Part shown: one piece after another, positions 759 to 52,823 of the stretch
Numbering within the stretch: position 1 is the stretch's first letter
How the letters are laid out: the number at the start of each line of letters is the position of its first letter
Virus record (IMG/VR): IMGVR_UViG_3300034061_006011
Length of the DNA stretch: 64,000 bases
DNA from: a virus
Lineage: Duplodnaviria; Caudoviricetes
Strand: one strand, 5' to 3'
Notes under the pieces: model-generated
What the model was told of the DNA's origin: nothing
Seen by the model: the letters and a program-made list of their open reading frames with translations, nothing else
The model's database searches: none
Made by a program: the position numbers and the translations under genes

Positions 759-1718
759 TTAAACGCAAAATTTGTTTAAAAAATAGTTTAGTTTATCGTT
801 TACAATATCCATTGGTAATTCTATTGAACATTTTAATTGTTTGTCAATTAAAGGATAAGGACATCTTCCCATGTTATTACAAGGTCCGCATGTCCAATTT
901 TTATCATTTGATGAATCTTTTTGAATAACTGTTAAGTTTTTATAATGTTTACCAACAACATGTCCATTTGTGTAATTAAAAAATCCTAGCAAAGGTTTGT
1001 TATATCCACCAGCGCAATGTAAATGACCTGTGTCTGTTGATATTACCATGTCTGAAAAATATATCATACTCATTGCTTCAATAAAATTTCTACATGCTAT
1101 TAGTGGAAATTTTAATTGATCTAATGTTGGAATATTATGCATATAAAAACAGAAAGCATTAGTTTCTAATAATCTTTTTTCTACAAGTTCACGATGTTTT
1201 TGCATTATATGTCTAGTAGGGACTGCGCTATATGGTGTAAATGCTATTATTTTTTGACCTTCTTTATATCCACCTTGTTTAAATAAAGAAAAAATATAAT
1301 CTCTATTTTTTTCTAAACTAGGTAAATGCATGTTATGATTGTCTAATGTAAGTCCAAATGATTCAGCCCAAATATCACTGCGATTTTTAACACATTCTTT
1401 GTTGTAGAAAGCTTCATGTCTTGAGCAATGATGTGTTATATTAAAAACTTGCCTATAATTATTATAATCAATGTCTTTATGATCTATTACTTCATCAATA
1501 TATTTATGATCTTTTATTACTTGAAAATAAGCTTGAGGTAGAGCATATGTTATTTTAAAATCAGGATATTGCTTTTTTAGATCTTCAAATATCATTCTAG
1601 ACATTAAAATGTCGCCGTATCCACCACATAAACGTAAAATGCAAATATTATTTTTTATTTTATTGTAATGTTTGATTCCTTGTGCCTTTTTAGGAGGCAT
1701 TTTAATAATTAGTTTCAC
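759..1718 (-). CDS. Glycosyltransferase family 9-like (GT-B fold)
   Basis: GGYGDILMS...LKKQYPDFKITY and ISTDTGHLHCAGGYNKP motifs typical of GT9. Confidence 0.85.
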   Translation of the reverse strand: MKLIIKMPPKKAQGIKHYNKIKNNICILRLCGGYGDILMSRMIFEDLKKQYPDFKITYALPQAYFQVIKDHKYIDEVIDHKDIDYNNYRQVFNITHHCSRHEAFYNKECVKNRSDIWAESFGLTLDNHNMHLPSLEKNRDYIFSLFKQGGYKEGQKIIAFTPYSAVPTRHIMQKHRELVEKRLLETNAFCFYMHNIPTLDQLKFPLIACRNFIEAMSMIYFSDMVISTDTGHLHCAGGYNKPLLGFFNYTNGHVVGKHYKNLTVIQKDSSNDKNWTCGPCNNMGRCPYPLIDKQLKCSIELPMDIVNDKLNYFLNKFCV

Positions 1719-1781
1719 AAAATAAAAATAGTGCTCGCAATTTAAATTGCAAGCACTATTTATTAATTTTTAATAATTAAG

Positions 1782-2390
1782 TTAGCTGTTGCATTGAGAA
1801 ACAACAGAATAAAGAGCTTCGATGTTGAATGTGCCAAATACGCCTGTTGCACCAGACATCTGAGGCTGAACAGCGACTCTATTGATAGAAATATCGCCAC
1901 CATTGAATACCTGAGTGCTGCCAGCTTCAAGGACAAAGATAGCGCCAGAACTACCGTTAAGCTGAACAATTGCATTGTTACCAGAAGCAAGAGCACCAGC
2001 ATTGGTAAGCTGCATAAAGGAAGCAAAGCTGCCAGTGTCGCCAGCAATGTCGATAATGTTGCCAGAAGAAACAAGAGTCTTACCAGAAGTAAGGGTGATG
2101 TTTGTTACTGCTGGATAGGTATTTTCGCTAGCAATGTCGCTGTAAACGCTACCATCATCAGTAACAACTTCGATGAAAGCATCATCAACAGATACAGCTG
2201 GAACTGCAAATTGCTTCCAGTAGTTGCAATCGGTGAAGGTTGTACCGTCAGCGATCTCACGAATTTTGCCATTTGGTCCAGTTACAAACATAGTGCGCTG
2301 AACGCTAGTGGAGAACTCAACACCAGTAGCTGGATCAATGTCGAGAGTGCCCTGATTTCCCTGATTTAATTTTACTCGAAATACACTCAT
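1782..2390 (-). CDS. Hypothetical protein, probably virion structural
   Basis: 202-aa G/S/T/A-rich ORF with AAGGAG RBS and TATATATA upstream. Confidence 0.65.
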   Translation of the reverse strand: MSVFRVKLNQGNQGTLDIDPATGVEFSTSVQRTMFVTGPNGKIREIADGTTFTDCNYWKQFAVPAVSVDDAFIEVVTDDGSVYSDIASENTYPAVTNITLTSGKTLVSSGNIIDIAGDTGSFASFMQLTNAGALASGNNAIVQLNGSSGAIFVLEAGSTQVFNGGDISINRVAVQPQMSGATGVFGTFNIEALYSVVSQCNS

Positions 2391-2561
2391 TTTTAAACTC
2401 CTTCATATGAAGATTTACTTACTATATATATAATCGTAGCTATATTTTTTTCTGCTTTGGAAACATTTTTAAAAATAATCCACTACAGTTTCCATTATTA
2501 GTTATTGCAGATACTAATAAATTTTTATTAGTATCTTAAAAAAATTGACAATACTATTATA

Positions 2562-2882
2562 TTATTTAAATTTTATATCATTTTTATCAAAATAATCTTT
2601 TATTCCATTGCCTTTGGGGTTGATATAAATTTCTTCACAAACGGCAAAATTATTTTTATTCTTTTCCATTTCTTCTAGACTAATAAAATTACTTGGTAGT
2701 TTTAAATCTTTTATTACATTGTTAGTAAAAGCAAAGTAAAAATTAATTTCAGGATATTTTTCTTTTATATTTTCTTGTAATATATTTAATTGGATTGCAT
2801 ATTCTAAGTTATAGACAGATAGATATATGCAATAATTGTTTGTAATTTTTGAAAGGATTTTAATTGTGGAAGAATCAGTCAC
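2562..2882 (-). CDS. Hypothetical protein
   Basis: 106-aa ORF filling an otherwise empty gap. Confidence 0.5.
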   Translation of the reverse strand: MTDSSTIKILSKITNNYCIYLSVYNLEYAIQLNILQENIKEKYPEINFYFAFTNNVIKDLKLPSNFISLEEMEKNKNNFAVCEEIYINPKGNGIKDYFDKNDIKFK

Positions 2883-3023
2883 AAATCCATCTCCAGATGA
2901 AAAGTCAAAAATTGAAGATTCTCTAGATGCTATGCAAAAGTTTTCTGCAAGTCTAGGACCAAATGATATTTACAGTCAAATTTTGATTGAAGAACTTTTT
3001 AAGGTTTTATGCAAAAAATGATC

Positions 3024-3051
3024 TTGATTTGTTAATAATCCATGCTATAAA
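3024..3051 (+). promoter_or_regulatory. Sigma70-type promoter
   Basis: TTGATT-N16-TATAAA with TGC extended -10, just upstream of ORF 3066. Confidence 0.5.
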
Positions 3052-3065
3052 TGAGTTAACCAGTA

Positions 3066-3593
3066 ATGAACTGGATTCAAGCCGCCCACATGGAGGATGT
3101 TGCTGTGAGACTTAGATACGTTTGGACATTGGTAGCTTTCGGTGTTATTTTCTCTTTGGGTGCTGTTAATTTTTATCAGTACAACAATGTCAGGAAATTA
3201 GAATTTTTCATGGAATGTGAAAGAGAACGAGCACGGATCAATGATGATCAGCTCAGAGAAAACACAATGAGAATGATTTCTGATTTAAGAGATCAAAACA
3301 TTGAAAGTGCTAGATCGCAAGGCAGGCTTGATGGCATTATTAGTGCTATCAATAACCTTAAGCTTTCTGAAGACAACGAATACAACAAGATTTGGCATGC
3401 CGGATATTATAACGGCACTGAAACACACAAACAACTTGTTGATGCTGCTTATGAAAACGGATATCATAAAGCAACAGAAGATGGTGCATGCACGGCTAAG
3501 GTAGATGCTAAGAAAGCTGCTGAAGCTAAAAATAAACCAGAAGTTGCTCCGCAGAAGAAGCCAGCAAATTCAGACATGACTACACAGAAGTAA
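3066..3593 (+). CDS. Membrane-anchored hypothetical protein
   Basis: Hydrophobic segment YVWTLVAFGVIFSLGAVNFY, then coiled coil and (A/W)xxxGYxxG/A repeats. Confidence 0.7.
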   Translation: MNWIQAAHMEDVAVRLRYVWTLVAFGVIFSLGAVNFYQYNNVRKLEFFMECERERARINDDQLRENTMRMISDLRDQNIESARSQGRLDGIISAINNLKLSEDNEYNKIWHAGYYNGTETHKQLVDAAYENGYHKATEDGACTAKVDAKKAAEAKNKPEVAPQKKPANSDMTTQK

Positions 3594-3613
3594 AAGTGTT
3601 GTTCATTTTGTAG

Positions 3614-3638
3614 CCACCTGCACTAATAGTGCAGGTGG
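3614..3638. terminator. Intrinsic terminator hairpin between convergent genes
   Basis: CCACCTGCACT-aat-AGTGCAGGTGG (11-bp perfect stem) followed by T-rich sequence. Confidence 0.75.
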
Positions 3639-3639
3639 T

Positions 3640-3918
3640 TTAGTTTTCTATAATATCATTTATGTTAAGATAAAATCTGCCTCTTGCAGACTTAATTAAC
3701 ACTTGATTTTCGATAATCTCTTCTACTGTTCCACCATTCTTGATAAAATCTTTTCCAATTTTTAATGAATTACCAATTATGATATCTGCTACTTCGCAAA
3801 AGTGTTTTAGTGATAAATTTGTTGTAACGCTATTACCGATCAATTTTTTATTTTCATTGATCTCGTTTTGAGCTTTTAGCCATTTCTTAAAATCGTAAAC
3901 AAATTTGTTATTGTTCAT
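3640..3918 (-). CDS. Hypothetical protein with capsid-targeting-like N-terminus
   Basis: YDFKKWLKAQNEINE near the N-terminus. Confidence 0.6.
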   Translation of the reverse strand: MNNNKFVYDFKKWLKAQNEINENKKLIGNSVTTNLSLKHFCEVADIIIGNSLKIGKDFIKNGGTVEEIIENQVLIKSARGRFYLNINDIIEN

Positions 3919-4813
3919 AAAATTTTTCTAAATTGTTTGGTTCAATATAGTTAGCAAACAACAAAGAATTTTTTATTCCAATGTAAGAAATATTTGTGTT
4001 TGAATTTCCAAGTTTTTGCCAGAATAAATTTGCATCAATAATATTTTTTGCAATTTTCTGTTGGGGATAGAAATGAAAATTTGTATCTTCTATTTTCTCT
4101 GTCCCCGGTCTTTGTTTTTCATAAGCATTTATTGGATAAGCAATGCATAATTTTTCACATTTCATTTTAGATGCTAATATTATTGCAGCAGATATTGAAC
4201 TTCTGTATTCATCAATATAATCAGCACTTTTGTGACTAATTGGACTTTCATAATTCTCATCTGGAGTTGTATTGTATCTAAATATTTTGTTTGGATATCT
4301 TTTAATAAATTTGTTGCATGATCTTGAACTTGCTATAAGGAATGGAAATATTCTTTCAGGCAGACAGGTTAAAGAATCTTCAAATGGATTAGTAAAAACC
4401 ATATAGTCTGGTAATCTTTTAGATTTCCAAAATCTGCTAGCACCATAAACTGTGATAATTTTTACATCTTTTGGCAATTGATCTAACCATGCGGTTGAAT
4501 TAGAAAATCCAAATCCATCTGATATTATTAATATTTTTTTGTGGATTATTGTTTCACTAAAAAAATCAAGCATTTGCATTTCTTGATTTTTCATTTCATT
4601 GTCTAGAAGAGTCTTCACTTCTTCTTTGCCATAAAATCCATTAATGTCTTTTGGCACAACATTTGGTTTCAAAAAATTCCTTACCCAAATGTTTTCATCA
4701 GTTAAATAATAATCATTCTTGTTTTTATGCAATTTGATTGTAACATTTTTCTCTTTATTGTTCGGCAGATTTACTTTAAAACTCTTGTAACTCTGCATGT
4801 TATTTTCTATCAT
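3908..4813 (-). CDS. DUF115/MptE-like domain protein (often glycosylation-associated)
   Basis: ILIISDGFGF...KIITVYGA...LPDYMVFTN resembles the DUF115 pattern (GPSL...AVN...PDY). Confidence 0.45.
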   Translation of the reverse strand: MIENNMQSYKSFKVNLPNNKEKNVTIKLHKNKNDYYLTDENIWVRNFLKPNVVPKDINGFYGKEEVKTLLDNEMKNQEMQMLDFFSETIIHKKILIISDGFGFSNSTAWLDQLPKDVKIITVYGASRFWKSKRLPDYMVFTNPFEDSLTCLPERIFPFLIASSRSCNKFIKRYPNKIFRYNTTPDENYESPISHKSADYIDEYRSSISAAIILASKMKCEKLCIAYPINAYEKQRPGTEKIEDTNFHFYPQQKIAKNIIDANLFWQKLGNSNTNISYIGIKNSLLFANYIEPNNLEKFYEQ

Positions 4814-7800
4814 TGAATTCTGTTGATTCCCTTTCTGAGTCCTGTATTTTGTTAAATACAGTTTCTGCTTTAATCATATTAATTATTGGAGTTACATTGT
4901 TCTCAATATTAACTACACTTTGGTTAACAACAGGTTCAATATCAATTTTTTCTATCTTAATTTCTTCTGTAACTGAATCGTTCTCAACAAAATTTATGTT
5001 TTTGACTTCTTCTTTTTCACTCTTAGAATCCTCATATATTTCTACTATTTGAGGAATATTATCAATATTAATTGATTTAGAATCAGATTCTGTAACATTG
5101 TCTTTAGCAACTGGGGTAAAGAGCGTAGCTTCTTCTATATTAGTATTAATTTTTTCAATTTCTTTACTTGAATTCAATTCTGACAATTTCAAAAATTTCA
5201 TTTCTGTTTTTTTGCTTTGATTGTAAACTTCGATTCCAAAATTAACATTCTTCATTTTGTCTTTAGCTTTTATCAAATGTAAATTTGATTTTTCACAAAA
5301 ACGATTGCAATCTCTAAGATTGTCAAATAATCCTAAGTTTTCAAAATAAAGACCAGCATTATCAATGTTTATACTCAAACATTCACACTTGTTGTTGGTT
5401 AATAAAGGATCTTTTACTGCAAAATAAATGTTGCTTTCAGTTGCGTTGAATGCAAAGGATGGTACAGGTTGACAGTTGATATCGTTTTGTTCTTCGCCCT
5501 CAGTCGGGCACGCTTCACCTAATCCGGGACAATTACAAGATGCAGTACAACCTAAAGGAGTGGGTGGTGACAAATTACAGGGTGATGTAGCAACCCATAT
5601 ACCAGCACTACATATTTTGCTACAAAAACAAGATAAACAATTACCTACTGGAGCAGAAGGTGTAGGCGGTGTTGGTGCAGTTGGTGTACACGAAGGATCT
5701 TTTTTACATGGTCTGTAAACAACCTGACCACTTATGCCTCTATTAGAAGGAGGTGGAGAAGTTATGCAAACATCAGGACAGTCATCGCAACAAATACATT
5801 TGTCGTTATCAAAAGTTTCATAGTTCCAACAAGTATTTATAGAAAACCATCTATTGTCTTGTACAGACCATTGGCACTGACAAGAACACTCGTTTTTTTC
5901 GCTTAGAACATCAGTGCAGTCGTTAGTTGGATCATGTTCAGTACATACAGTAAATCTTTGATAGTCGCCCGGTTGAGTCGGTGCTTGTAAATCCTCTAAA
6001 CAATAACATTCACAATTACCAATACAGTTAGAAATTTTTCTCCAGTTTGGATTTGGTATATCTGGGTGACAAGGAGTTCCAAGTCCGGGATCATATTGCC
6101 ATTCACATTGGTTAGGACATCCGGGATCTTTAAAACAACCAGTTGAAGCAAGTTCACCATCAGTTGTTCCGGGATTCTTTGGATGTGTGCAAGAACAACT
6201 AACATTAAAACAGCCTATTTGTTTAGGCATCCATTCTTCAAGTATTGAACTCCATTCCCAGAGACAATTTTCACCACAATAAGATTTACATCCAATATGG
6301 ATTATATCACCAATAAATTGAATTGGTGAAATTGGAATTTCCGATCCATCTCGACATACACAATCTCCATCACATGGTTGATAAATAAACGCACCATCAG
6401 CAGGTTGTCCATATTTCCTACATCCAGCATTATTACCAGTTGCCTGTGCCCACGAAGCAATACCTGAAGAATTAATTCCAAAAATGTATCTACACATACA
6501 ATTTTTGCAGTTTGAAGGATAATATGGATAAAAAGATGGAGTAAGATATATTGGTGTAATACTTGGAGTTAATGGCGCTGTTGGATTAGGAGGTCCGGGT
6601 GGTAAAAATCCGGGAGATGCTGGAACTGGTGGGAAAGCTGGTCCCGGTGGAATTGGTCCTGATGCCGGTGATGCTGGTCCTGATGCCGGTCCCGCCGCTG
6701 GTCCGGGATTAAATATTGGCGATGATGGCGAAGCTACCGGAGCAGAAGCTGGCGATGATGGAGCAGTCGGACCAAAACAAATATTATCTGAAACGCATAT
6801 GTTTATTAAAGCTCTACCAATAATACCAATTTGGTCGCATGTATCATATCCAGTATCATTGTTAAATTTTTGGACATACATCTCGTATTGTCCATCTGGA
6901 TTAATATTTTGAAAAGAAGATAAACCTGTTTTGTATGGAGCAGGTGGAGCAGGAGCAAGCAAACTGATATTTTCATGTCCATTTGGAGATGGATGATAAG
7001 TTCCAGATAACAAAGGAGTGTTAGTACTAACAGGTAATATATAATTTGTACTACTATCATCAAATGTTATATCAACATAATCAGCAATAGTATATGCGTT
7101 TGCGCCAATTGCTAATAATAATACAGCTGTTCCGTCTGGTCCAACCACTAATATTCTTACATCACCTAATCTTTTACTTGGTTTGAAAATTTTTAAAGAT
7201 TCAATTTCCACTGTCATTTTACTTATTGATGGCGTTCCATTACATAAAGATCCTGCAATAGTAAAATTAGCTGGATAAGGATTTGCTGTACAATTTGACC
7301 TAATATTTATTCCACCCGTTCTTATTGTAAAACAATCATTAAAATCAAAATTAACATTACCACCAATGGTTATTGGCGTAACACTTATCAAACTTGGGAT
7401 ATTTGGGAAAGGACTAACAGAAATAAATGAAGGAATGTTTGGAAACGGAGTTACTGTAATCACTGAAGGAATATTAAGATCTGGAGTTATATTAATAGTT
7501 GATGGTATAAATATAGGTCCAATATTAGCAAAAAAGTTTGGAAATACAATCGGAGGAAAGTTAATAATAACAGGATCACAATTTGCCGTAACAATCGGAA
7601 AAGGACCGGGAGTCAAAGCAGTTGGAATAGGTAAAGTAGGAACAGTTGCAGGAGTTCTAGCATCAATTAAATTTCCAGCGCCACCAACATTGTTTCTTAC
7701 TATGCCAGATACAACTGTAGAACAATTTTGATTAACTACCGTTAAAACTGGATCAACAACAAAGTTTGGTGGATAAATATGAGTGCCAATTAAACTGTTT

Positions 7801-8411
7801 GCATCAGATGTACCATCACCAAAATCTAAAATAAAACTATTAATATTTCCATTGATTATAATTTCATATGATATTTCAGTTCCAGTAACTGGACTCGAAG
7901 AAATAGTAGTATAATAAAATGTTACATCAGGACAACCAGAGTCATCTCCTATTTGCGGTAAACCTGCTAAATTTCTAACTCTCCAGTCAACAGTAGCTTG
8001 ATCTGGATTCTCCGTATAACCAATAAAATTTTCAGTGTTTACAATCGCTCTGGCAAGCTGATTGTGATGTTCTGCCATCACAAATCCACGAATATCTGTA
8101 CCAGCAGCATTAAACTTGGAAGACTTTCCACCAATATTACGCAAACAATTCAACAAACCATTCACTTTACTTGTATATTGGTCTTTGCTTACATTTTCGT
8201 AATAAAGAACTTCACCAGATATTGTGGCGTATCCATTATCTGCCCAAACTTCTGGTTTATCAGCATCAACAGGTTTGATATACAATGTTGTATCAAATTG
8301 TTCTGCTGATTTTGTTAGTATACTTTCAGTTGTGTTGTATACGTTAAGGAGTGTATAATCAGAATCATAGTTCTGAGGATATTGTGACGTTGGCGGAAAT
8401 ACTTGCTTCAA
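4800..8411 (-). CDS. Fibre/adhesin-like virion protein: anchor module, PKD, Pro-rich linkers, P-domain, Cys-rich repeats
   Basis: PKD motif ILDFGDGT...HIYP; P-domain-like GDVRILVVGPDGTAVLL...ITFDDS...DGQYEMYV; Cys-rich C-terminal part. Confidence 0.7.
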   Translation of the reverse strand: MKQVFPPTSQYPQNYDSDYTLLNVYNTTESILTKSAEQFDTTLYIKPVDADKPEVWADNGYATISGEVLYYENVSKDQYTSKVNGLLNCLRNIGGKSSKFNAAGTDIRGFVMAEHHNQLARAIVNTENFIGYTENPDQATVDWRVRNLAGLPQIGDDSGCPDVTFYYTTISSSPVTGTEISYEIIINGNINSFILDFGDGTSDANSLIGTHIYPPNFVVDPVLTVVNQNCSTVVSGIVRNNVGGAGNLIDARTPATVPTLPIPTALTPGPFPIVTANCDPVIINFPPIVFPNFFANIGPIFIPSTINITPDLNIPSVITVTPFPNIPSFISVSPFPNIPSLISVTPITIGGNVNFDFNDCFTIRTGGINIRSNCTANPYPANFTIAGSLCNGTPSISKMTVEIESLKIFKPSKRLGDVRILVVGPDGTAVLLLAIGANAYTIADYVDITFDDSSTNYILPVSTNTPLLSGTYHPSPNGHENISLLAPAPPAPYKTGLSSFQNINPDGQYEMYVQKFNNDTGYDTCDQIGIIGRALINICVSDNICFGPTAPSSPASAPVASPSSPIFNPGPAAGPASGPASPASGPIPPGPAFPPVPASPGFLPPGPPNPTAPLTPSITPIYLTPSFYPYYPSNCKNCMCRYIFGINSSGIASWAQATGNNAGCRKYGQPADGAFIYQPCDGDCVCRDGSEIPISPIQFIGDIIHIGCKSYCGENCLWEWSSILEEWMPKQIGCFNVSCSCTHPKNPGTTDGELASTGCFKDPGCPNQCEWQYDPGLGTPCHPDIPNPNWRKISNCIGNCECYCLEDLQAPTQPGDYQRFTVCTEHDPTNDCTDVLSEKNECSCQCQWSVQDNRWFSINTCWNYETFDNDKCICCDDCPDVCITSPPPSNRGISGQVVYRPCKKDPSCTPTAPTPPTPSAPVGNCLSCFCSKICSAGIWVATSPCNLSPPTPLGCTASCNCPGLGEACPTEGEEQNDINCQPVPSFAFNATESNIYFAVKDPLLTNNKCECLSINIDNAGLYFENLGLFDNLRDCNRFCEKSNLHLIKAKDKMKNVNFGIEVYNQSKKTEMKFLKLSELNSSKEIEKINTNIEEATLFTPVAKDNVTESDSKSINIDNIPQIVEIYEDSKSEKEEVKNINFVENDSVTEEIKIEKIDIEPVVNQSVVNIENNVTPIINMIKAETVFNKIQDSERESTEFNDRK

Positions 8412-8444
8412 TTTTATGCCCTACCTATTAATATTTAGTTTAAT

Positions 8445-25613: not shown

Positions 25614-32507
<6,894 letters not shown>

Positions 32508-39985: not shown

Positions 39986-40002
39986 ATCAAGAAAGGTCTG
40001 TA

Positions 40003-40788: not shown

Positions 40789-40841
40789 GGTACACCTCCA
40801 AATGTATATATTATTACTCCTTTATTTTCTTCTCAAATCAA

Positions 40842-42259: not shown

Positions 42260-42535
42260 TTAAGTACATTCAATCATTTTTCTTTCGCCGTTTTCAATTA
42301 TTTCTATATATTCACGCCAACTTAAAGTTTTATGCCTTCTGATAATTTTTATTTGACCAGCATGAACTTTTCTATGACAGTTAGAACACAATAAAACGCA
42401 ATTTTCATGGTCATATGTGCCTTTATTTGCCCCTTCATGAATTCTATGAATGTCTAAGGTAGCAAGATTGCTCTCACCACATAAAACACATTTTCCTCTA
42501 GACAATTTGTATGTTTTTTTGTTTTTAATTCTCAT
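42260..42535 (-). CDS. HNH endonuclease
   Basis: CVLCG...DIHRI...GTYDHENCVLLCSNCHRKVH. Confidence 0.85.
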   Translation of the reverse strand: MRIKNKKTYKLSRGKCVLCGESNLATLDIHRIHEGANKGTYDHENCVLLCSNCHRKVHAGQIKIIRRHKTLSWREYIEIIENGERKMIECT

Positions 42536-43545: not shown

Positions 43546-43583
43546 TTAATCACAAAAAGAGTATATAATACAAGGAGGACGCT

Positions 43584-44183: not shown

Positions 44184-44187
44184 TTCT

Positions 44188-45204: not shown

Positions 45205-45535
45205 TTATACTGCAAGCGGTGGTTTAAAAGTAGGCATTTGTTCAAAGTATTGGATGACTAAAAATTATCCATACAAATGGAGACCCGGAGATGTTTTATT
45301 CTCTAAACAAAAAGCATTAGTAGGTCAATTTGAAAAAGTTGCTATTAAAGATGTAAGAATTATTATGAATCAATCAACAGTTGGAAAATTGTTTTTCATT
45401 TATGTTGATAGCCTCAATTCTTTGTGGAATGAAAATGATCTTGTTCAAGAATATGATGCTTTGTTAATGGCTAAAATGTATTATGAAAAGAAAATAGCAG
45501 AAACAGTTAGCGCAAGCTATTGTTGCAATCTTTAA
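45197..45535 (+). CDS. Hypothetical protein
   Basis: 112-aa ORF with GGGAGG RBS, overlapping the previous stop. Confidence 0.65.
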   Translation: MPSYTASGGLKVGICSKYWMTKNYPYKWRPGDVLFSKQKALVGQFEKVAIKDVRIIMNQSTVGKLFFIYVDSLNSLWNENDLVQEYDALLMAKMYYEKKIAETVSASYCCNL

Positions 45536-46626
45536 TCCATCATAACGATTTCTTCAACTGTTTTGACTTCTAGTTTTTCCCAAAGATCTTTATTAAGGAA
45601 TATGTGATCACATGGATCAGATCCAATAGGTAAATATCTACCTCTACATCTGTTATTGAAAACAGTTGTAGGGATGCCACAAAGTAAACTGTAAGACTTC
45701 AACCATGTGTCAGCAGATATTACTTTTTCTACGGAATGAAGTATCTTTAAGAATATTGATAAATCTATGGGAGTGCTAGATTTATTTCCTGTCATTCTAT
45801 TTGAGGTAAGAAACCAATTGTTTTCACGATTTGGTTTCCATTTATAGAATTCTTTATCACCATCAGATCCAGTTGTTATTACATTGTATCCAAGACCAAG
45901 ATATTTATTAACAATGCAATCGTATTCAAAAACTTCTAAATATCTTTGTCTGTTTGAATCTCTTACTGAGCCGCTTGGTTGAATTATTATTGATTTTTGA
46001 CTTTCAAAATGTGGATGCTTGCCAAACTTTTCAATCCAATTAGTTTTAAAAACCATTCTTTGTTTGTAATAGTTTATATCTCTGCCCCAGTCACCGTAAT
46101 CTAATCCTTTTGCAAGATGTCCGCTTGCTTTAAAATTAATCTTTTTTATCATATAGTCGTAAACTACATTTGCATTTTTTGAACCCATTAAGTTTCTTGC
46201 AACGTAATTATCAAGTCTGAAAAATTGTAAAAATTCTCTACAGAAATCCATACTGCCAGTATTAGCAAAAAATGCAACTTGTGCGTTGGGATCTTCATGA
46301 CAACATGCAAGAAGAAGAATTAAGTCGCCTGTACCACCAAAATTTAAATACCAATTTTTAGAAGGTAACAAAAATTCTTTCAAGCCTCTTACAGCATTGA
46401 AAGCAATATTCTCTTCTAAAAGTTTTCTTTTATTTGTAGATAACTGATCTCTTTTTATCGTGCTTATGATGGTGTGTTTATTAGAAACAGGGTTTCTCCC
46501 CACAGGGGGAGAAATTGTTTCATTCAGCTTTTCAACATTCTTGTTTTGTTTGAACTTGGCTTCAAACTGAGCTTGCTTGAGGAGTCTTTCAATATCTTCC
46601 CGCTTAATATTACTCTGGTGATTCAT
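45532..46626 (-). CDS. GT9-like glycosyltransferase
   Basis: GGTGDLILL; IIIQPSGS; ILHSVEKVISADTW. Confidence 0.7.
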   Translation of the reverse strand: MNHQSNIKREDIERLLKQAQFEAKFKQNKNVEKLNETISPPVGRNPVSNKHTIISTIKRDQLSTNKRKLLEENIAFNAVRGLKEFLLPSKNWYLNFGGTGDLILLLACCHEDPNAQVAFFANTGSMDFCREFLQFFRLDNYVARNLMGSKNANVVYDYMIKKINFKASGHLAKGLDYGDWGRDINYYKQRMVFKTNWIEKFGKHPHFESQKSIIIQPSGSVRDSNRQRYLEVFEYDCIVNKYLGLGYNVITTGSDGDKEFYKWKPNRENNWFLTSNRMTGNKSSTPIDLSIFLKILHSVEKVISADTWLKSYSLLCGIPTTVFNNRCRGRYLPIGSDPCDHIFLNKDLWEKLEVKTVEEIVMMD

Positions 46627-46900
46627 CTGTTGGTCTGCTTTTTAAATATCTGTTTAATGCTGTCATAATTCTTCCTTTAATATCAGGATCATCCACAAAT
46701 GGAATCATTTTTTTAACAATTGATGCCAACTTTGTTGCATCTAAACCTTCGAAAGCAGTCATCAAAATATTTAGACCACCTGTTCCAGCAGTCCCAAGTT
46801 CTTTAGCTTTTGCTTTGTAGTCTGTAATTGCAGCAGAAGCACTTATGGGAACATTTTCATTAAACTGCTGACACCATTCGCCAAATTTCTTAATAGCCAT
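46610..46900 (-). CDS. Small protein with capsid-targeting-like N-terminus
   Basis: MAIKKFGEWCQQFNE. Confidence 0.65.
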   Translation of the reverse strand: MAIKKFGEWCQQFNENVPISASAAITDYKAKAKELGTAGTGGLNILMTAFEGLDATKLASIVKKMIPFVDDPDIKGRIMTALNRYLKSRPTDESPE

Positions 46901-47037
46901 TGTTAGCCTTTCATATTTTTACATATCTTGTTCAAAATCATCAGGTCTCATTATGTGACGCTTTTTTGGTCGTTCTTCAAATTCGTCATCACTACTATGA
47001 TATTTAGTAAGATATTTCTTTATTTTGCTACGCCAAG
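46896..47037. repeat. 142-bp direct repeat, copy 1
   Basis: Matches 47803-47944 with 3 mismatches. Confidence 0.95.
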
Positions 47038-47060
47038 AAGAATATTTAATTTCCCAATAG

Positions 47061-47807
47061 CTAAAGATTAGTTTTGGGATAAAGTATTATGTCACAAGAA
47101 CTATGGTAAGGATATTGTTTAATCATTCTTTCTTTAGATATAGGTGTATTTTTTTGATCAAAAACATTGTAACCAAGTTCATATATGTGATCAATAAATA
47201 AAGGTATGCCTCCATGTTTAATATGATCAATGTAAAGAGAGAGTTCTAAAAGAATGATTGGTTTAAATTTATCAATTGTTTCTTTTGCCCCAAGAAGAAC
47301 TTTGTGTTCATAACCTTCAACGTCAATTTTCAATAAATCTACACGATTTAGATTCTTGCAGTAATCGTCAAGTGTAATTAATTCTGTATCAAAAACAGTT
47401 GGTTGTAATTCAAGAGCACCGGGACTTACTGGAAGATTTATTTCTTGTCCATCTCCACACATTACCCATGAATTGAGCAATTTAACATTTTTAAGAGAAC
47501 TCTTTGAATCGCTAATTCCAACTTGATTATAAACACATTTATCTCCAAATGATTCCAATAATTTCTTACTGCTTTCGATCATGCATGGAGATGGCTCAAA
47601 TAAATGAACTTTTGAATATCCTAGTAGAAGAAAAGAATGAGCCATTCCTCCTATGTTTGATCCTACGTCTAAAGCAACACTTTCATTGTCTTTGAGTGCT
47701 TTTTCCATAGCTTGTTGAAAAGCTGGACCATTTGAAGCCATTGATTGATTTTCAAGGGATTGCTGTGGTGGTTTGTTTTTTGAAGGTTTGTTGCCTGAAT
47801 ATGCCAT
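47061..47807 (-). CDS. FkbM-family methyltransferase
   Basis: ALDVGSNIGG, HLFEPSP, LITLDDY, DLLKIDVEGYEHKVLLGAKETI. Confidence 0.92.
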   Translation of the reverse strand: MAYSGNKPSKNKPPQQSLENQSMASNGPAFQQAMEKALKDNESVALDVGSNIGGMAHSFLLLGYSKVHLFEPSPCMIESSKKLLESFGDKCVYNQVGISDSKSSLKNVKLLNSWVMCGDGQEINLPVSPGALELQPTVFDTELITLDDYCKNLNRVDLLKIDVEGYEHKVLLGAKETIDKFKPIILLELSLYIDHIKHGGIPLFIDHIYELGYNVFDQKNTPISKERMIKQYPYHSSCDIILYPKTNL

Positions 47808-47944
47808 TGTTAGCCTTTCATGTTTTTACATATCTTGTTCAAAATCATCAGGTCTCATTATGTGACGCTTTTTTGGTCGTTCTTCAAATTCGTCATCACT
47901 ACTATGATATTTAACAAGATATTTCTTTATTTTGCTACGCCAAG
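47803..47944. repeat. 142-bp direct repeat, copy 2
   Basis: Contains the 3' end of the upstream gene, the RBS and the FkbM start codon. Confidence 0.95.
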
Positions 47945-48146
47945 TAGCAACTTTTTGTTGATTAACATCAAGGATGGCAGAGAAACCCCTGCCATCCCCG
48001 ATTACACGAAGAAAATCATCCCAGAAAGAATCTCCACCAATATCAATACCCCGTGCTATTAGCTCCAGAGCTTGCTCATCGGTACGCTTTCTATCTTCTT
48101 CCTTATAAGATCGAATACTTTCATTTAAACTAGCAAAATTTGCCAT
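47826..48146 (-). CDS. Small hypothetical protein (start revised to MANF)
   Basis: MANFASLNES; starts 1 nt after the upstream TGA. Confidence 0.7.
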   Translation of the reverse strand: MANFASLNESIRSYKEEDRKRTDEQALELIARGIDIGGDSFWDDFLRVIGDGRGFSAILDVNQQKVATWRSKIKKYLVKYHSSDDEFEERPKKRHIMRPDDFEQDM

Positions 48147-49523: not shown

Positions 49524-50828
49524 ATGAGACATTTTCATCCTACCACTGTACATCTAATGCGTGAATGTGCAACCTTGTTTTGCAAAACAAAAATAGACCC
49601 ATATCTTTACCTAGAAAGATTCATAGAAGTAAACAAGTCTTTCTTCGTAGAAAATGCACAAGTCAAATTCGCCACCCTACTGCTAGAAGCAGATGCAGCT
49701 GGTGGTAGAGACTGGGATCAATACATGAGACAAATGCATGCCTATTGGACAGGAGGACAAGCAGGCATGACTAAAGAAAAATCAGATATATCATATAGCT
49801 ACAATCAAGCTATGAAACATATAGGAAATATGTTAGAATTAGTTAATCAGAATCCAGAAGCTGATGATCCAGCTGTTTTAAGACAAGTAAAAAACAATCT
49901 TAATAAATTAAAATTAAGTTTTGATAATGTCAAACCAATGATTGACAATGTCAGAGACAGAATTATGAATGTCGCTGTTAATAAAATGCAAGGAACCGCT
50001 GCTCCTCTTGCTGGATCTGTTGATTTTAGCCAATTTAGCAATCTGAAAGATGAACAAGTTTTCCCAAAAATGGCAGATATAATCTCAAGGAATCCAGCTG
50101 CTAATACGCCTGAAGGTAAATTCTTGAATATGGTCAAAAACAATCCACTAAGATTCGGTGATACTGCAATAAATGATGCTAAGACACAGCTTCAATTTGT
50201 TGATGAAAGATTAGCTAAAAAAATAATAAAAGACCAAAGATTGATTAGAACCAATGTTATGAGGTCTGGATCGAGTGCTGGAAAAATAAAAATTTACAGT
50301 ATACTTAAAAACAGTTTATTTGGGGTGTTAACACCAGATATAAAATCAGTTTTGATAAAATTTTTCGGAGACGAAAATGCTGTGTTATTGGCATTCTTAA
50401 AGTTCAAAAATATTATGCCACAACAAGATGCACCAAGTAGAATGGAGACTAATCCAACAAAAATTCAAGAAAACAATCAGAACATTGATCGCATACAAAA
50501 TAAATTAACACCAATAATAACCAGTCTAAAATTAAGAATACCTGCAATTACAAACTTGAAAGATATTGTTAAATATGTAAATAACAATAATCCTCCCATC
50601 AATGATCCTACAAATATTATAAATAGAGTTGCAGTTGCAATGGGACCGGGTACAAACCCAGTAAATCTTGCAAATAGTTTTAAATTTGTATTAGATATAA
50701 TTAATAACTATGGTAACGTACCACCCGCTAACAGAAAGTTTTTTAAAGCACAAAACGAAAATTTTAAACTACTATATCAAATGTTAGATAATTTCAGTGC
50801 TGCCTTAGCTGGGTTGCCAACTCCTTAA
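49524..50828 (+). CDS. Hypothetical helical protein, possible internal head protein
   Basis: TATAAATA-N4-ATG; LLLEA protease-like site. Confidence 0.7.
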   Translation: MRHFHPTTVHLMRECATLFCKTKIDPYLYLERFIEVNKSFFVENAQVKFATLLLEADAAGGRDWDQYMRQMHAYWTGGQAGMTKEKSDISYSYNQAMKHIGNMLELVNQNPEADDPAVLRQVKNNLNKLKLSFDNVKPMIDNVRDRIMNVAVNKMQGTAAPLAGSVDFSQFSNLKDEQVFPKMADIISRNPAANTPEGKFLNMVKNNPLRFGDTAINDAKTQLQFVDERLAKKIIKDQRLIRTNVMRSGSSAGKIKIYSILKNSLFGVLTPDIKSVLIKFFGDENAVLLAFLKFKNIMPQQDAPSRMETNPTKIQENNQNIDRIQNKLTPIITSLKLRIPAITNLKDIVKYVNNNNPPINDPTNIINRVAVAMGPGTNPVNLANSFKFVLDIINNYGNVPPANRKFFKAQNENFKLLYQMLDNFSAALAGLPTP

Positions 50829-50981: not shown

Positions 50982-50989
50982 ATATATAT
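50982..50989. promoter_or_regulatory. Palindromic ATATATAT, putative bidirectional late promoter
   Basis: Exactly 4 nt from an ATG on each strand. Confidence 0.5.
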
Positions 50990-50993
50990 TCTC

Positions 50994-51254
50994 ATGAATT
51001 TAAACTTTAAAAAATGGCTCACTGAAGCCGCTCCAGCCGCTCCAGCACCAGCAGCGGCTACTGCTCCATCTGGTGGTGGAGGATCGCCCGGAGGCGGTTT
51101 AACAGGCACAGGAACGGCATTTAAATATACACCATCAAATAGTAATAAAAATAATTGGGCAAAGACACCAGATCAATGGTACAAAAGAGATATTGCAAAT
51201 AAATTTAACAAAGGATGCAGCGGATCACCTTGTCCCAAAAGTCTAACTGGTTGA
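50994..51254 (+). CDS. 86-aa peptide with capsid-targeting-like N-terminus (start revised)
   Basis: MNLNFKKWLTEAAPAAP... Confidence 0.6.
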   Translation: MNLNFKKWLTEAAPAAPAPAAATAPSGGGGSPGGGLTGTGTAFKYTPSNSNKNNWAKTPDQWYKRDIANKFNKGCSGSPCPKSLTG

Positions 51255-51356
51255 TTCAAAATTTAATTCAACACGCATATATACAAATGTCAAATGTGTT
51301 AAAAAACAATTTATGACAAAAACACTAAGTATTTTTAATAAAATTTAGGAGGAAAA

Positions 51357-51686
51357 ATGGGAGCTACATCAGTAACAGGAGTTGGTCAAGGCAGCGCAGA
51401 ATCTGCATGCAAAGGCGCACCGGGTCGTCAGACCCTCGGAGTTGGTCATCTAATCGGACCACACGTTGTTAGCGCAGGAACAACTACACTAGCTGGCGGT
51501 ACAAAAGCACTTGAAATCGCACCACTAACAGGTGTTGCAGCTGATTATATCGTACTTGCTACAGACTATACCGCTGCTGCGGCAGTTAAAGCTGTTCTTA
51601 CAGTTTCTAGCGATATCTGGACTATTACCTTCACAGGCACAAGCACAGATGTTATTCAGTATGCAGTTGTAAGCGTTGGCAACTGA
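51357..51686 (+). CDS. Small G/A/T-rich protein, probable virion decoration protein
   Basis: AGGAGG RBS, own terminator, biased codon usage. Confidence 0.7.
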   Translation: MGATSVTGVGQGSAESACKGAPGRQTLGVGHLIGPHVVSAGTTTLAGGTKALEIAPLTGVAADYIVLATDYTAAAAVKAVLTVSSDIWTITFTGTSTDVIQYAVVSVGN

Positions 51687-51707
51687 ATTTAATAATTAAA
51701 TAAATAT

Positions 51708-51743
51708 AAAACCGTATTAAAGTTATTTTAATACGGTTTTTTT
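51708..51743 (+). terminator. Rho-independent terminator
   Basis: AAAACCGTATTAAA-N5-TTTAATACGGTTTT followed by T-run. Confidence 0.75.
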
Positions 51744-51872
51744 ATGTAAAAATAATTAGAAATATATGCCGCTGATATCGAACCTCATGAAGAAATCATG
51801 AATAAATAACATTAATCATTTGTAATAATTTTATTTTGTTCGGCACCTCTAAATATTGTTAGAGGTGCAAAA

Positions 51873-52823
51873 ATGATCAGCAAAACATTAGCTGCCAATT
51901 ATCAGGAAGATGCAAAACTCTATGTCATCACCCCAATAATTAACCCTCAAAGATACAACAGCAGATACAAACTATACAAAAAATTTGAAAAAATGGTCAA
52001 TGACTCTGGAGCAGTTCTGTACACAATAGAAGCTGCATACGGAAATAGACCATTTGAAGTCACTACATCAGACAACCCACAAAACATTCAAGTAAGAACT
52101 ATATCTGAATTGTGGCACAAAGAAAACATGATCAACGTAGCTGTACAAAGACTTCCATCAAATTGGGAATACGTTGCATGGATTGACGCAGATGTTGCCT
52201 TCGCAAGACCAGATTGGGTCGAAGAAACCATACATCAACTACAACACCACCCAGTAGTCCAAATGTTTAGCACTGCTGTAGACCTTTCTCCTAAACACGA
52301 AATGATAAAAGCACACAAAGGATTTGTTTATAGCTATCTCAACCGTGTACACCAAAAATGCGACAAATATGATCATTGGCACCCCGGTTTTGCTTGGGCA
52401 GCTACAAAATATGCCTTTAATTCATTCGGTGGACTAATAGAAGAAGCAATATTAGGTTCTGGAGACAGACATATGGCTTTTGGTCTAGTAGATAAAATTG
52501 AAATGACTATAAATAAAAAATTCACACAAGCATACAAACGTGTACTAAAAAAATGGGAAACTCTTGCAGTTGAGCATATCAAGAAAAATATAGGATATGT
52601 TGAAGGAACACTATTACATTATTGGCATGGAAAGAAAAAAGATAGAGGTTATAGCTGGAGAAGCAATGTTCTAGTCAAAAATAACTATGACCCAGATACA
52701 GACATAAAAAAAGATTGGCAAGGAATTTATGCCTTAACAGGAAATAAAATTAAATTTAGAGATGAATTGGTACAATACTTTAAATCAAGAAATGAAGATA
52801 GCATAGATGAAGAAATTTGTTAA
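51873..52823 (+). CDS. GT-A-fold glycosyltransferase-like protein
   Basis: LWHKENMINVAV...YVAWIDADVAF (DxD)...HPGFAWA...GSGD. Confidence 0.65.
   Translation: MISKTLAANYQEDAKLYVITPIINPQRYNSRYKLYKKFEKMVNDSGAVLYTIEAAYGNRPFEVTTSDNPQNIQVRTISELWHKENMINVAVQRLPSNWEYVAWIDADVAFARPDWVEETIHQLQHHPVVQMFSTAVDLSPKHEMIKAHKGFVYSYLNRVHQKCDKYDHWHPGFAWAATKYAFNSFGGLIEEAILGSGDRHMAFGLVDKIEMTINKKFTQAYKRVLKKWETLAVEHIKKNIGYVEGTLLHYWHGKKKDRGYSWRSNVLVKNNYDPDTDIKKDWQGIYALTGNKIKFRDELVQYFKSRNEDSIDEEIC

Follow-up and report, generated by a model that had tools for sequence, protein, structure and literature searches.

Glycosyltransferase genes fixed beside the fibre and head genes of a huge freshwater myophage: possible glycosylation of the virion

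Sugar-adding enzymes are encoded at fixed positions beside the fibre and head genes of a huge uncultured freshwater myophage, and tailoring genes are swapped between its near-identical strains. On these grounds, the best reading of the arrangement is that the phage runs the glycosylation of its own virion, mainly of distal baseplate and fibre proteins, a reading that we hold tentatively, at somewhat short of an even chance. That the acceptor is a virion protein, as well as the sugars used, the timing of expression and the benefit (shielding, stability or adsorption), we infer from context, fold and motif. The initial annotation of this DNA had proposed a virion glycosylation system that may build a methylated glycan coat on the capsid or on fibres, one of them mucin-like. 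The glycosylation idea gains contextual support from the conserved fibre and head positions, an HldE-like gene and the CTAAATA motif, but it does not stand as a single methylated-mucin system.

Enzyme genes at five sites of a morphogenesis region

The 64,000-nucleotide stretch analysed here (the window) is a T4-type morphogenesis region. All nine open reading frames (ORFs) singled out in the initial annotation are present where it had placed them, and they do lie among structural genes, with portal, protease, gp23, tape measure and baseplate genes around them. They do not form the one cluster that had been proposed: the genes occupy five separate sites that differ in conservation and are partly strain-variable cassettes. 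Three sites are conserved (the Maf-like and GT9 genes by the fibres, the block at 42580-46626, and the GT2-like gene at 51873-52823 by the head genes) and two are strain-variable (a GT9-like pair with a TylF gene at 38229-40611, and an FkbM cassette). The four proteins that had been called GT9-like all carry G(G)xGD near the N-terminus; g759 is a solid GT9 enzyme, whereas g38229, g39134 and g45532 are remote homologues only. The three methyltransferases (TylF-type, class I and FkbM) are upheld by their Pfam scores. The DNA examined, about 155 kb, is part of a genome whose estimated size is roughly 570 kb, and includes a 91-kb contig, G001, that is 98.5% identical to the window; the relatives include a complete 595-kb phage genome (LR756511) and a 633-kb contig (L040).

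A Maf-fold and a GT9-fold enzyme beside the fibre genes

8445-12911, minus strand: fibre protein 1, 1488 aa (translation, Pfam PKD, TSP-rich windows)
4800-8411, minus strand: fibre/baseplate-distal protein 2, 1203 aa (same-position homologues in all relatives)
3908-4813, minus strand: g3908, miniature Maf-fold (DUF115/MptE-like) glycosyltransferase, 301 aa (AF2 model, synteny)
3640-3918, minus strand: 92-aa ORF sharing 11 nt with the Maf-like gene
1782-2390, minus strand: conserved beta-rich protein, 202 aa, between the Maf-like and GT9 genes
759-1718, minus strand: g759, GT9 heptosyltransferase-fold enzyme (Pfam, profile, AF2 model, synteny)
10747-12193, no strand assigned: tandem DNA repeats encoding TPA tracts (TRF)

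The Maf-like gene shares 14 nt with the stop end of fibre gene 2, which leaves neither gap nor terminator between the two, and it is translationally coupled to the fibre genes; one late message would carry it together with the genes of the two giant fibre proteins. The order shared with relatives runs from fibre 1 and fibre 2 through the Maf-like gene and a small ORF to the GT9 gene and, further on, an actin-like gene. Five lineages share the fibre–Maf-like–GT9 order, at identities as low as about 30%, with the GT9 gene 2 kb beyond the Maf-like gene. It is kept in L019-L021 (about 65% identical), in L044 (34% identical; its GT9 protein has PF01075 on record), in LR756511 (27-34% identical) and in L043 (32% identical), where a 332-aa ORF at the GT9 position is a candidate by its place. 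Each of the five lineages has a small ORF after the Maf-like gene, and the 92-aa version in the window has no family match. The 202-aa protein found no match in Pfam or PHROG. Its identity is 86% in relatives whose general level is about 65%, and 44% in LR756511.

The DUF115 assignment of g3908 falls short in sequence, where its score against PF01973 lies under the Pfam cut-off (22.9 bits vs 34.6), but its AF2 model (pLDDT 89.8) matches the Maf flagellin glycosyltransferase 5MU5 with a VIA Z of 20.6 over 249 residues (rmsd 3.7). The score is 13.9 to MptE kinase and about 7 to sialyltransferases, and comparison with Campylobacterota Maf clusters gave a TM of 0.75 (Atlas). The central catalytic fold is common to g3908 and the Maf protein of Magnetospirillum magneticum (5MU5), and each is a cytoplasmic enzyme whose gene adjoins that of a filament-type protein. 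Maf has 632 aa, whereas g3908 lacks its N-terminal (PF20157) and C-terminal domains, and the acceptor is flagellin in the one case and presumably the phage fibre in the other. To our knowledge, the sole characterised function of Maf is O-glycosylation of a filament protein. By analogy with Maf on flagellin, g3908 would probably act in the cytoplasm and transfer a sugar onto Ser/Thr of a virion protein. Its donor may be host CMP-ulosonic acid, a guess drawn from the weak sialyltransferase match and a WaaZ-like resemblance; a nonulosonic-acid pathway was not found in G001 or LR756511. Other phages have the Maf-like domain in fusion with Methyltransf_23/25 or GT2 domains, which ties these enzyme types to one pathway.

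A serious alternative, although we consider it rather unlikely, is that the GT9-like, HldE and tailoring enzymes act on the host surface and change its LPS core, O-antigen or capsule, with the benefit that the adsorption of competitor phages is blocked or progeny are kept off debris. Among the Swiss-Prot proteins closest in fold to g3908 is WaaZ, probably a Kdo transferase that acts on the LPS core. This core is also the classical substrate of GT9 enzymes, and LPS heptosyltransferases I and II are the families nearest to g759 in sequence. However, the Maf match of g3908 stands far above any match to a lipid-glycan transferase, its gene is coupled to late fibre genes, and the Maf-like and GT9 positions are kept over deep divergence, whereas exclusion functions are usually early and in plastic regions. 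The enzyme translations have no evident membrane segment, which counts for little since WaaC is also peripheral.

The GT9-fold enzyme g759 scores 23.2 bits against PF01075 (Pfam cut-off, 22), and the two LPS heptosyltransferase families are its best NCBIfam matches at 35 bits, vs an equivalog cut-off of 185. A profile of its family found 3TOV (8e-13), WaaC/WaaF (1e-10 to 1e-11) and TibC (0.055) in the PDB. The AF2 model (pLDDT 94.3) reached VIA Z scores of 22.9 to 3TOV, 22.4 to TibC and 21.6 to WaaF (20-22 for WaaF/WaaC), with the next fold outside the ADP-heptose transferase group at 11.7 or below, and the lowest rmsd (2.8) was to TibC, a protein Ser-heptosyltransferase. The sequence carries a catalytic GD, the motif DTGHLH and a conserved C-terminal Cys4 cluster (CxxC-x5-C-x10-C), and residues G35, D36, C280, C286 and C297 are invariant in an alignment of 38 family members. 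The catalytic Asp of GD and the D(T/S)GxxH motif are shared with WaaC, WaaF and 3TOV (Z 20-23); WaaC and WaaF lack the C-terminal Cys4 cluster, whereas g759 has one, and its gene lies in the late structural region of a phage. The catalytic core of TibC/Aah (BAHT; 4RAP, 4RB4) superposes on g759 as well as GT9 enzymes do. TibC bears a Cys4 metal finger in its C-lobe and heptosylates Ser of a fibrous beta-helical protein in the cytoplasm (PMC4358343). It differs from g759 in a 97-residue N-terminal beta-barrel, which g759 lacks, and in the spacing of its cysteines (C339, C342, C358 and C370), and the Cys-cluster profile of g759 gave no sequence match to TibC.

With its Cys4 metal cluster, g759 probably uses ADP-heptose as donor, and an HldE-like enzyme of the phage may help to supply it. 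G001 encodes a 470-aa HldE-like ADP-heptose synthase that matches NF008454 end to end (224.8 bits), and a 475-aa ORF in LR756511 is similar to it. Because GmhA, NeuB and a CMP-sugar synthetase were not found in G001 or in the complete LR756511, the sugar donors are taken to be largely host-derived.

It is improbable, in our judgement, that the conserved Maf-fold and GT9-fold proteins are non-catalytic assembly or structural factors or small-molecule enzymes, and that the variable cassettes are unrelated morons drifting through plastic sites. GT9-fold proteins can be non-catalytic, as is PnsB1, a structural subunit of the plant NDH complex, which matches the g759 model at Z 18-19. Further, the D(S/T) motif is lost in g39134, a pyrophosphokinase and the cell-division regulator SteA share the MptE-like fold, and repeat-mediated recombination moves the cassettes as it does other genes of this phage. 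Against this, across the 38 diverse members of the g759 family the catalytic Asp does not vary and the nucleotide-sugar lobe motif is invariant or nearly so, the Maf-like family has many invariant acidic and basic residues, and DxD does not vary in the GT2-like family; a phage HldE-like enzyme is also sensible only if a heptose donor is consumed.

Thr/Ser/Pro tracts of the fibre proteins

The fibre with Thr/Ser/Pro repeats that had been described is the product of 8445-12911. Its N-terminal part consists of Cys-rich modules linked by TPA-type tracts, with three tracts inside residues 231-771 and 235 TSP-rich windows in the protein, and is followed from about residue 775 onward by a conserved core with a PKD domain (Pfam). 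The tandem repeats that encode the tracts have periods of 9, 12, 21, 30 and 33 nt (TRF), and their local GC content rises to 0.44. Fibre protein 2 combines Cys-rich modules with a Pro/Ser/Ala tract at about residues 540-640. In LR756511, conservation with fibre protein 1 is limited to the core, and the fibre homologues of LR756511 and L043 contain no Thr/Ser/Pro-rich tract. Since both of these genomes retain the Maf-like gene and, where GT9 would lie, an ORF, the supposed link to a mucin-like acceptor fails on co-occurrence, and the TPA tracts are not a required acceptor; they may be mere linkers.

A conserved methyltransferase block and a GT2-like gene beside the head genes

42580-43545, plus strand: g42580, class I SAM methyltransferase (Methyltransf_23, 46.7 bits)
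43584-45535, plus strand: three conserved genes (199, 338 and 112 aa) between g42580 and g45532
45532-46626, minus strand: g45532, remote GT9-like GT-B protein, 364 aa (Atlas, hhalign)
51873-52823, plus strand: g51873, GT2-like GT-A glycosyltransferase facing away from the gp23 head module

The methyltransferase g42580 has an N-terminal helix and a PEP-repeat linker, and its homologues in L015-L017 are 56-58% identical. The three genes that follow encode beta-rich and Ser/Thr-rich products with no Pfam or PHROG match, and are kept as a block in L015-L018. Both its features and its structure (Atlas) make g45532 GT9-like; it has no Pfam match, is related to the g759 family at 82.5% in hhalign, and has homologues of 39-64% identity in the same block of relatives. 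This block would add a class I methyltransferase and a GT9-like protein to the pathway.

The GT-A protein with a DxD motif noted at 51873 proved to be GT2-like: its own score is 16.5 bits, 22 of the 32 family members match PF00535, and DxD is invariant. In strains with about 86% identity in the portal, the gene reaches 97-99%, and it is as conserved as the capsid protein. It lies beside gp23 in three lineages, with a distance of about 2 kb in L041 and in the 633-kb contig L040. We regard this enzyme as a putative part of the conserved core.

The motif CTAAATA occurs 19 times in the window, and five of these stand 8-70 nt ahead of a start on the same strand, vs 0.56 expected with the AT-rich intergenic bias left in. 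These five precede the portal gene, fibre gene 2, w34384, g42580 (37 nt upstream) and g51873 (24 nt upstream). In G001, the motif also precedes 4 of 11 capsid-tag genes, which must be late. CTAAATA is read as a late-type motif. Its presence before g42580 and g51873 argues against modification of the host envelope.

Strain-variable tailoring cassettes

38229-40611, plus strand: GT9-like pair and TylF cassette, GC 0.25 (genes at 38229-39137, 39134-39985 and 40003-40611)
46896-47954, minus strand: FkbM methyltransferase cassette (gene at 47061-47807; FkbM 58.6 bits, TIGR01444 77.5 bits)

In the first cassette, g38229 scores 18.4 bits against PF01075, under the cut-off, and is related to the g759 family at 93.5% in hhalign. 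Its neighbour g39134, the protein without a D(S/T) motif, has no Pfam match and an end-to-end relation to the g45532 family (hhalign, 95.3%), and the TylF-type methyltransferase reaches 26.7 bits (Pfam cut-off, 23). The cassette is absent from relatives of 60-64% identity. Strain L014 has a sulfotransferase, an NAD epimerase/dehydratase and a C-methyltransferase at the site instead, in flanking DNA that is 96-99.6% identical to the window, with a breakpoint of the swap near 40811. A direct repeat of 152 nt flanks the FkbM gene on both sides (46896-47047 and 47803-47954), and the gene is absent from L014, which is 96-99.6% identical across the same stretch. If the virion is the target, such cassettes on top of the conserved core would create glycan diversity between strains.

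Clusters of LPS/capsule type in jumbo cyanomyophages have been read as host-surface modification (Iyer et al. 2021, PMC7824862). They have the same make-up (PfkB kinase, nucleotidyltransferase and paralogous glycosyltransferases) and are polymorphic even between close relatives, and both the 38229-40611 island and the FkbM gene are strain-variable cassettes of this kind, in favour of the host envelope. Here, in contrast, some of the enzymes are fixed by fibre and head genes and one is coupled to the fibres, an arrangement not reported in PMC7824862 that fits host-surface modification less well. In mycobacteriophages, virion glycosylation by glycosyltransferase genes among structural genes is established (Freeman et al. 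2023, as cited in PMC12619734), and glycans were measured there on both capsid and tail tube. Glycosyltransferase genes among structural genes and a virion-surface target are the common features, the target being presumed in our case; the host type, the enzyme families (Maf-fold and GT9) and the phage type (a huge T4-like myophage) differ.

Sugar transfer to phage DNA

Some of the transferases might instead place sugars, possibly heptose, on hydroxymethylated bases of the phage DNA, in the manner of T4 glucosyltransferases and of the GT-A/GT-B DNA glycosyltransferases recently described in phages; we regard this as very improbable. Phage glycosyltransferases for hexose, HexNAc, heptose and Kdo on 5hmC exist, and some of them adjoin structural genes (bioRxiv 10.1101/2023.12.21.572611). 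GT-B is also the fold of T4 beta-glucosyltransferase. In G001, an RGP/GT75 gene (147 bits) is accompanied by an adjoining ORF and another TylF gene, about 2.6 kb from an 815-aa gene. However, the structural neighbours of g759 are heptosyltransferases and not the T4 enzyme, and the conserved enzymes adjoin fibre and head genes, not replication genes. Neither a thymidylate-synthase-type hydroxymethylase nor a TET/JBP dioxygenase was found in the 91 kb of G001, and the complete LR756511 has no TET and a single PF00303 match, which at 275 bits resembles an ordinary ThyA.

Genomic setting

By ORF listing and family scans, the window comes from an AT-rich phage (GC, ~0.33) and covers T4-type morphogenesis genes, with the following landmarks.

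2-514, - strand: actin-like (Volactin/MreB-like) gene, closing the conserved fibre-enzyme block
4800-8411 and 8445-12911, both - strand: two very large distal proteins (fibre 2 and fibre 1, respectively)
25614-32507, - strand: tape measure protein, 2297 aa
42260-42535, - strand: HNH-endonuclease-like ORF, 91 aa, between w40842 (an ORF bordering the variable island) and the block of the methyltransferase gene g42580
54051-54380, - strand: hydrophobic, multi-pass membrane-like ORF, 109 aa, immediately 3' of gp23, with ATAAATA 11 nt upstream
54550-56007: gp23 capsid protein (family scan)
59795-62308, - strand: portal protein with an intein (Intein_splicing at residues 120-336, N-terminal to the Portal_T4 domain)
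Other head genes: gp21 protease and a scaffold-sized gene (family scan)
Tail and baseplate genes: gp2 and gp53-, gp5-, gp25-, gp6-, and P2-I-like genes (family scans)

The initial annotation had proposed a virion glycosylation system within this region. The setting and the genes were borne out (all nine enzyme ORFs are present in the ORF listing, and the TylF, class I, and FkbM methyltransferase assignments stand in family profile scans), but the genes occupy five sites rather than a single cluster. PHROGs holds no family for any of the glycosyltransferase (GT) genes of the window, and a megablast of window positions 36-56 kb against cultured phages gave no matches. The nearest deposited phage is the uncultured LR756511 (595 kb), with a gp6-like protein 43.7% identical. 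A near-identical IMG/VR contig, G001 (91,466 bp), is 98.3-98.6% identical to window positions 1-10929 and extends ~80 kb past the window start, and it was used as a stand-in for the genome beyond the window. Since CheckV puts the completeness of G001 at 16%, the genome is probably about half a megabase.

The portals of four related contigs (L004, L008, L011, and L041) are similar in length to the window portal, and an intein domain is on record for that of L041. The tape measure has 24 consecutive Gly around residue 170, and its central ~900 residues are hydrophobic and resemble many membrane segments, which is unusual for a myophage.

Maf-fold and GT9 enzymes beside the fibre genes

At the first site, the Maf-like gene g3908 (3908-4813) overlaps the stop of fibre 2 by 14 nt, and a 92-aa ORF (w3640) overlaps g3908 by 11 nt. 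The gene order fibre 1, fibre 2, Maf-like gene, small ORF, GT9 gene, and actin-like gene recurs in three related contigs (L019 to L021) at ~65% identity. This order, small ORF included, is also found in L044 at 34% (its GT9 gene with PF01075 on record) and in LR756511 at 27-34%. A further contig, L043 (32%), keeps it too, with a 332-aa ORF at the place of GT9 that is assigned by position alone. In L043, directly after the Maf-like gene pair, genes for a UDP-glucose/GDP-mannose dehydrogenase and an aldehyde dehydrogenase form an insertion on the opposite strand (L043:11192-13786). The actin-like gene is 92% identical in the otherwise ~65% identical relatives and 54% identical in LR756511.

By sequence, g3908 scores 22.9 bits against PF01973, under the gathering cutoff of 34.6, and 5 of 24 homologues have a precomputed match to this family. 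A search of the Maf-like family profile against the PDB found nothing by sequence, and only the fold search recovers a match. The AF2 model (pLDDT, 89.8) matches the Maf flagellin glycosyltransferase 5MU5 with a VIA Z score (structure comparison) of 20.6 over 249 aligned residues (rmsd, 3.7), compared with 13.9 for MptE kinase, 11.2 for SteA, and ~7 for sialyltransferases. The Atlas resource of protein clusters and structures likewise gives a TM of 0.75 to Campylobacterota Maf clusters. On this predicted model, g3908 has the fold of the Maf catalytic domain. The protein is much reduced: 5MU5 has 632 aa and g3908 has 301, the match is limited to Maf residues 179-514, and both the Maf_flag10_N domain (PF20157, no match in g3908) and the C-terminal domains of Maf are missing. 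Fusions of the Maf-like domain with Methyltransf_23/25 or GT2 domains occur in other phages and tie the enzyme types of the window to one pathway.

The second conserved enzyme of this site, g759 (759-1718), scores 23.2 bits against Pfam PF01075 (CAZy GT9; cutoff, 22), as its G001 copy also does above the cutoff, and its best NCBIfam matches are LPS heptosyltransferases I and II. The family comprises 809 representative clusters. In a 38-sequence alignment, G35 and D36 are invariant and correspond to the GD of the catalytic Asp; this GD lines up with its counterpart in 3TOV and WaaC, and the D(S/T)GxxH motif of the C-lobe (DTGHLH in g759) with DSGPMH/DTGLSH. The family profile matches 3TOV, WaaC, and WaaF at 1e-10 to 1e-13. 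The AF2 model (pLDDT, 94.3) gives Z scores of 22.9 for 3TOV, 22.4 for TibC, 21.6 for WaaF, and ~20 for WaaC, versus 11.7 or less for all other GT-B structures. As modeled, g759 is a true GT9-fold enzyme.

TibC is a precedent: its heptosyltransferase core, which bears a Cys4 finger, glycosylates a fibrous protein while still in the cytoplasm (PMC4358343). TibC carries an N-terminal beta-barrel at residues 1-97 (PMC4358343) and a Cys4 iron finger inserted in the C-lobe. The g759 model (319 aa) opens with a helix at residues 15-21, followed by the first Rossmann strand at 24-28, and has no such barrel; a Cys4 cluster at residues 277-297 is conserved in the 38-sequence alignment, but a profile of this segment has no TibC match. 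We therefore do not assign g759 to the BAHT group (TibC/Aah protein heptosyltransferases).

The Thr/Ser/Pro repeats noted initially in the fibre 1 product are indeed there: tandem DNA repeats encode three TPA-type tracts, which fall within residues 231-771. The proposed co-occurrence of such fibres with the GT genes failed: the fibre homologues of LR756511 and L043 are free of Thr/Ser/Pro-rich tracts, yet both phages retain the Maf-like gene together with an ORF in the GT9 place. Such tracts act in the ~65% relatives as linkers that join swapped modules, RCC1-like and others. The fibre 1 homologue exceeds 4300 aa in L019 (2-6220) and L021 (2-6316), where an N-terminal part with RCC1-like and other beta-propeller-type repeats and TP(V/I/A) linkers replaces the Cys-rich modules of the window; the part in common is the last ~750-850 residues only.

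Probable remote GT9 relatives and the GT2-like gene of the head side

The G(G)xGD motif attributed to four GT9-like proteins is present near the N-terminus in all four translations; g759 has the true GT9 fold, and the other three are probably remote relatives at best. For g38229 (38229-39137), Pfam GT9 scores 18.4 bits (cutoff, 22) and hhalign to the GT9 family gives 93.5%. Pfam has no match for g45532 (45532-46626), for which family-to-family hhalign to GT9 reaches 82.5% and Atlas supports a GT9-like placement. Pfam is likewise silent on g39134 (39134-39985), which lacks the D(S/T) motif and aligns to the g45532 family at 95.3% in hhalign. A 290-aa ORF of G001 with a GIGD motif was also compared as a possible GT9-like protein, with a negative result.

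The second site is a block that begins with the HNH-like ORF, continues with the class I methyltransferase gene g42580 and three genes without a recognized family, and ends with the GT9-like gene g45532; relatives of 39-64% identity keep it. The HNH-like ORF (42260-42535) is divergent from g42580, and the two share a 44-nt spacer with TAAATA on each strand.

The third site, on the head side, consists of the GT2-like gene g51873 (51873-52823). Strains that share ~86% identity in the portal share 97-99% in this gene, and both a 77% relative and a contig of 633,754 bp (62%) have it ~2 kb away from gp23. The family is huge and strongly conserved, with >3156 homologues, of which the top 120 each exceed 50% identity, and members with a taxon record are mostly viral. 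The proposed GT-A enzyme with a DxD motif is supported at the level of the family, in which D105-x-D107 never varies and PF00535 is matched by 22 of 32 members at E ≤0.01 (best, 4.5e-7), but g51873 itself reaches 16.5 bits, under the cutoff of 23.3. Atlas viral glycosyltransferase clusters score 0.99.

Strain-variable tailoring cassettes

The fourth site is an island at 38229-40611 with a GC of 0.25, the minimum of the window, and it is missing from relatives of 60-64% identity. The contig L014 (IMGVR_UViG_3300042402_007623) shares 99.6% identity across 47.8-55.5 kb and 96.4% beside the island, with similarity ending near 40811. In place of the GT9-like pair and the TylF gene, L014:13753-16031 encodes a sulfotransferase, an NAD-dependent epimerase/dehydratase, and a C-methyltransferase with Methyltransf_13 and Methyltransf_23 domains; the contig stops short of the far boundary of the island. 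Family scans found no recognizable family for w35568, the first gene of the operon with the island.

At the fifth site, a 152-nt direct repeat (95% identical; 46896-47047 and 47803-47954) flanks the FkbM gene. The repeat comprises the 3' end of the upstream gene, a spacer, and the start codon. L014 has a single copy of the repeat and is missing the FkbM gene, a clean picture of a cassette that was probably gained or lost by recombination. Another swapped gene, of 434 aa (49524-50828, + strand), has TATAAATA 11 nt upstream and is 47% identical in L014, versus 99.6% for the flanking DNA.

Donor supply and possible target of glycosylation

Approximately 71-72 kb before the window start, G001 81830-83242 (L031:1830-3242) encodes a 470-aa HldE-like protein, a candidate bifunctional heptose kinase/adenylyltransferase with PfkB and cytidylyltransferase-like parts. 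Both Pfam domains are over their cutoffs, and NF008454 is matched over positions 12-472 of 475 at 224.8 bits, under the equivalog cutoff of 521. LR756511 has a similar 475-aa HldE-like ORF (W01 358155-358433 region). The gene belongs to a 98.5% identical strain rather than to the window, and it gives indirect support to the predicted use of ADP-heptose by g759. GmhA, NeuB, and CMP-sugar synthetase (CTP_transf_3) were looked for in G001 and LR756511 and none was found, so most sugar precursors must come from the host; so would the donor of g3908, if it is the putative CMP-nonulosonic acid. A HAD phosphatase match in LR756511 fell under its cutoff.

This inventory is a reason for caution, as it would also fit the modification of host-surface glycans. 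The classical substrate of GT9 enzymes is the LPS core, and the LPS-type clusters of jumbo cyanophages (Iyer et al. 2021, PMC7824862) have the same make-up as seen here, with a PfkB kinase, a nucleotidyltransferase, and paralogous GTs that vary between relatives; they were read as acting on the host surface, a role that is itself proposed. Glycosylation of the virion, mainly of the fibres, together with strain-variable tailoring cassettes, is nevertheless the reading that we favour from gene order, fold, and motif, because the fibre genes are coupled to the gene of a Maf-fold enzyme, the gene of a heptosyltransferase-fold enzyme is close by, a GT2-like gene stands beside the head genes, these three keep their positions even in deeply diverged lineages, and the phage has an HldE-like gene. 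The Maf-like fusions and the mycobacteriophage and TibC precedents argue in the same direction. The initial proposal is supported in part, by the fixed position of these genes near the fibre and head genes, but its link to a TP-rich acceptor is not supported. To our knowledge, the only demonstrated cases of virion glycosylation are those of a few actinobacteriophages and of giant eukaryotic viruses. In mycobacteriophages, virion glycosylation by GT genes among the structural genes is established, as cited in an article on the "moraphage," a lineage distinct from the present one that reaches 307 kb (PMC12619734).

Much less probably, DNA could be the substrate, as phage GTs are able to put heptose or Kdo on DNA bases (bioRxiv 10.1101/2023.12.21.572611). 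The phage DNA-glycosylation clusters described by Pyle et al. would be recognized by a neighbouring 5mYOX/TET or ThyS-type hydroxymethylase. G001 has no match to PF00303 or PF12851, nor does the complete LR756511 have a TET, with ~155 kb of the window phage's genome covered. Another locus lies elsewhere in G001, at 43203-45699 (L029:3203-5699), where an RGP/GT75 gene (plant-type, UDP-arabinopyranose mutase family; 147 bits) overlaps a 295-aa ORF and is followed by a second TylF-type methyltransferase gene, ~2.6 kb from an 815-aa gene. This trio may be a separate glycosylation locus and could serve another target, DNA included. The 295-aa ORF, considered as a relative of g51873, proved unrelated.

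Phage glycosylation genes as such are known; what is new is a conserved module of Maf-fold and GT9 genes fixed beside the fibre genes of huge T4-like phages, with swappable tailoring cassettes. Virion glycosylation could be extended into a fuller scenario, which we offer tentatively and think somewhat likelier to fail than to hold in all its parts. A clade of huge freshwater T4-like phages would O-glycosylate its own tail fibres, and perhaps the head, with a cut-down Maf and a GT9 heptosyltransferase bearing a metal cluster, for which an ADP-heptose synthase of the phage would supply the donor, and near-identical strains would carry different tailoring cassettes (for methyl, sulfate, epimerized, and C-methylated sugars), resulting in strain-specific "glyco-serotypes" like bacterial O-antigens. 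If so, and if the clade is widespread, phages would have a layer of surface variation comparable to these antigens, readings of host range and adsorption would need to allow for glycan masking or a first contact through glycans, many "LPS genes" of jumbo phages would call for reexamination, and compact Maf-type and GT9-type protein glycosyltransferases could be used as tools. Should the enzymes act on the host surface instead, such genes would still be shown to be fixable inside late structural operons.

Timing of expression

With 11 copies versus 8 expected, the window shows no enrichment of the T4 late promoter TATAAATA, and a sigma-70 scan was at chance level (109 versus 98 expected). Terminator-like sites are in excess (27 versus ~8 expected) and do not settle the timing. 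T4-like cyanophages have late promoters of the CTAAATA type. This motif occurs 19 times in the window, with five copies 8-70 nt before a same-strand start versus 0.56 expected, an expectation that takes no account of AT-rich spacers. The five stand before the portal gene, the fibre 2 gene, w34384, the methyltransferase gene g42580, and the GT2-like gene g51873. Among the 11 genes of G001 with a capsid-targeting tag, which must be late, CTAAATA precedes 4 and ATAAATA 2 more. The motif suggests that the two enzyme genes are expressed late, and the operon structure suggests the same predicted timing for the Maf-like gene.
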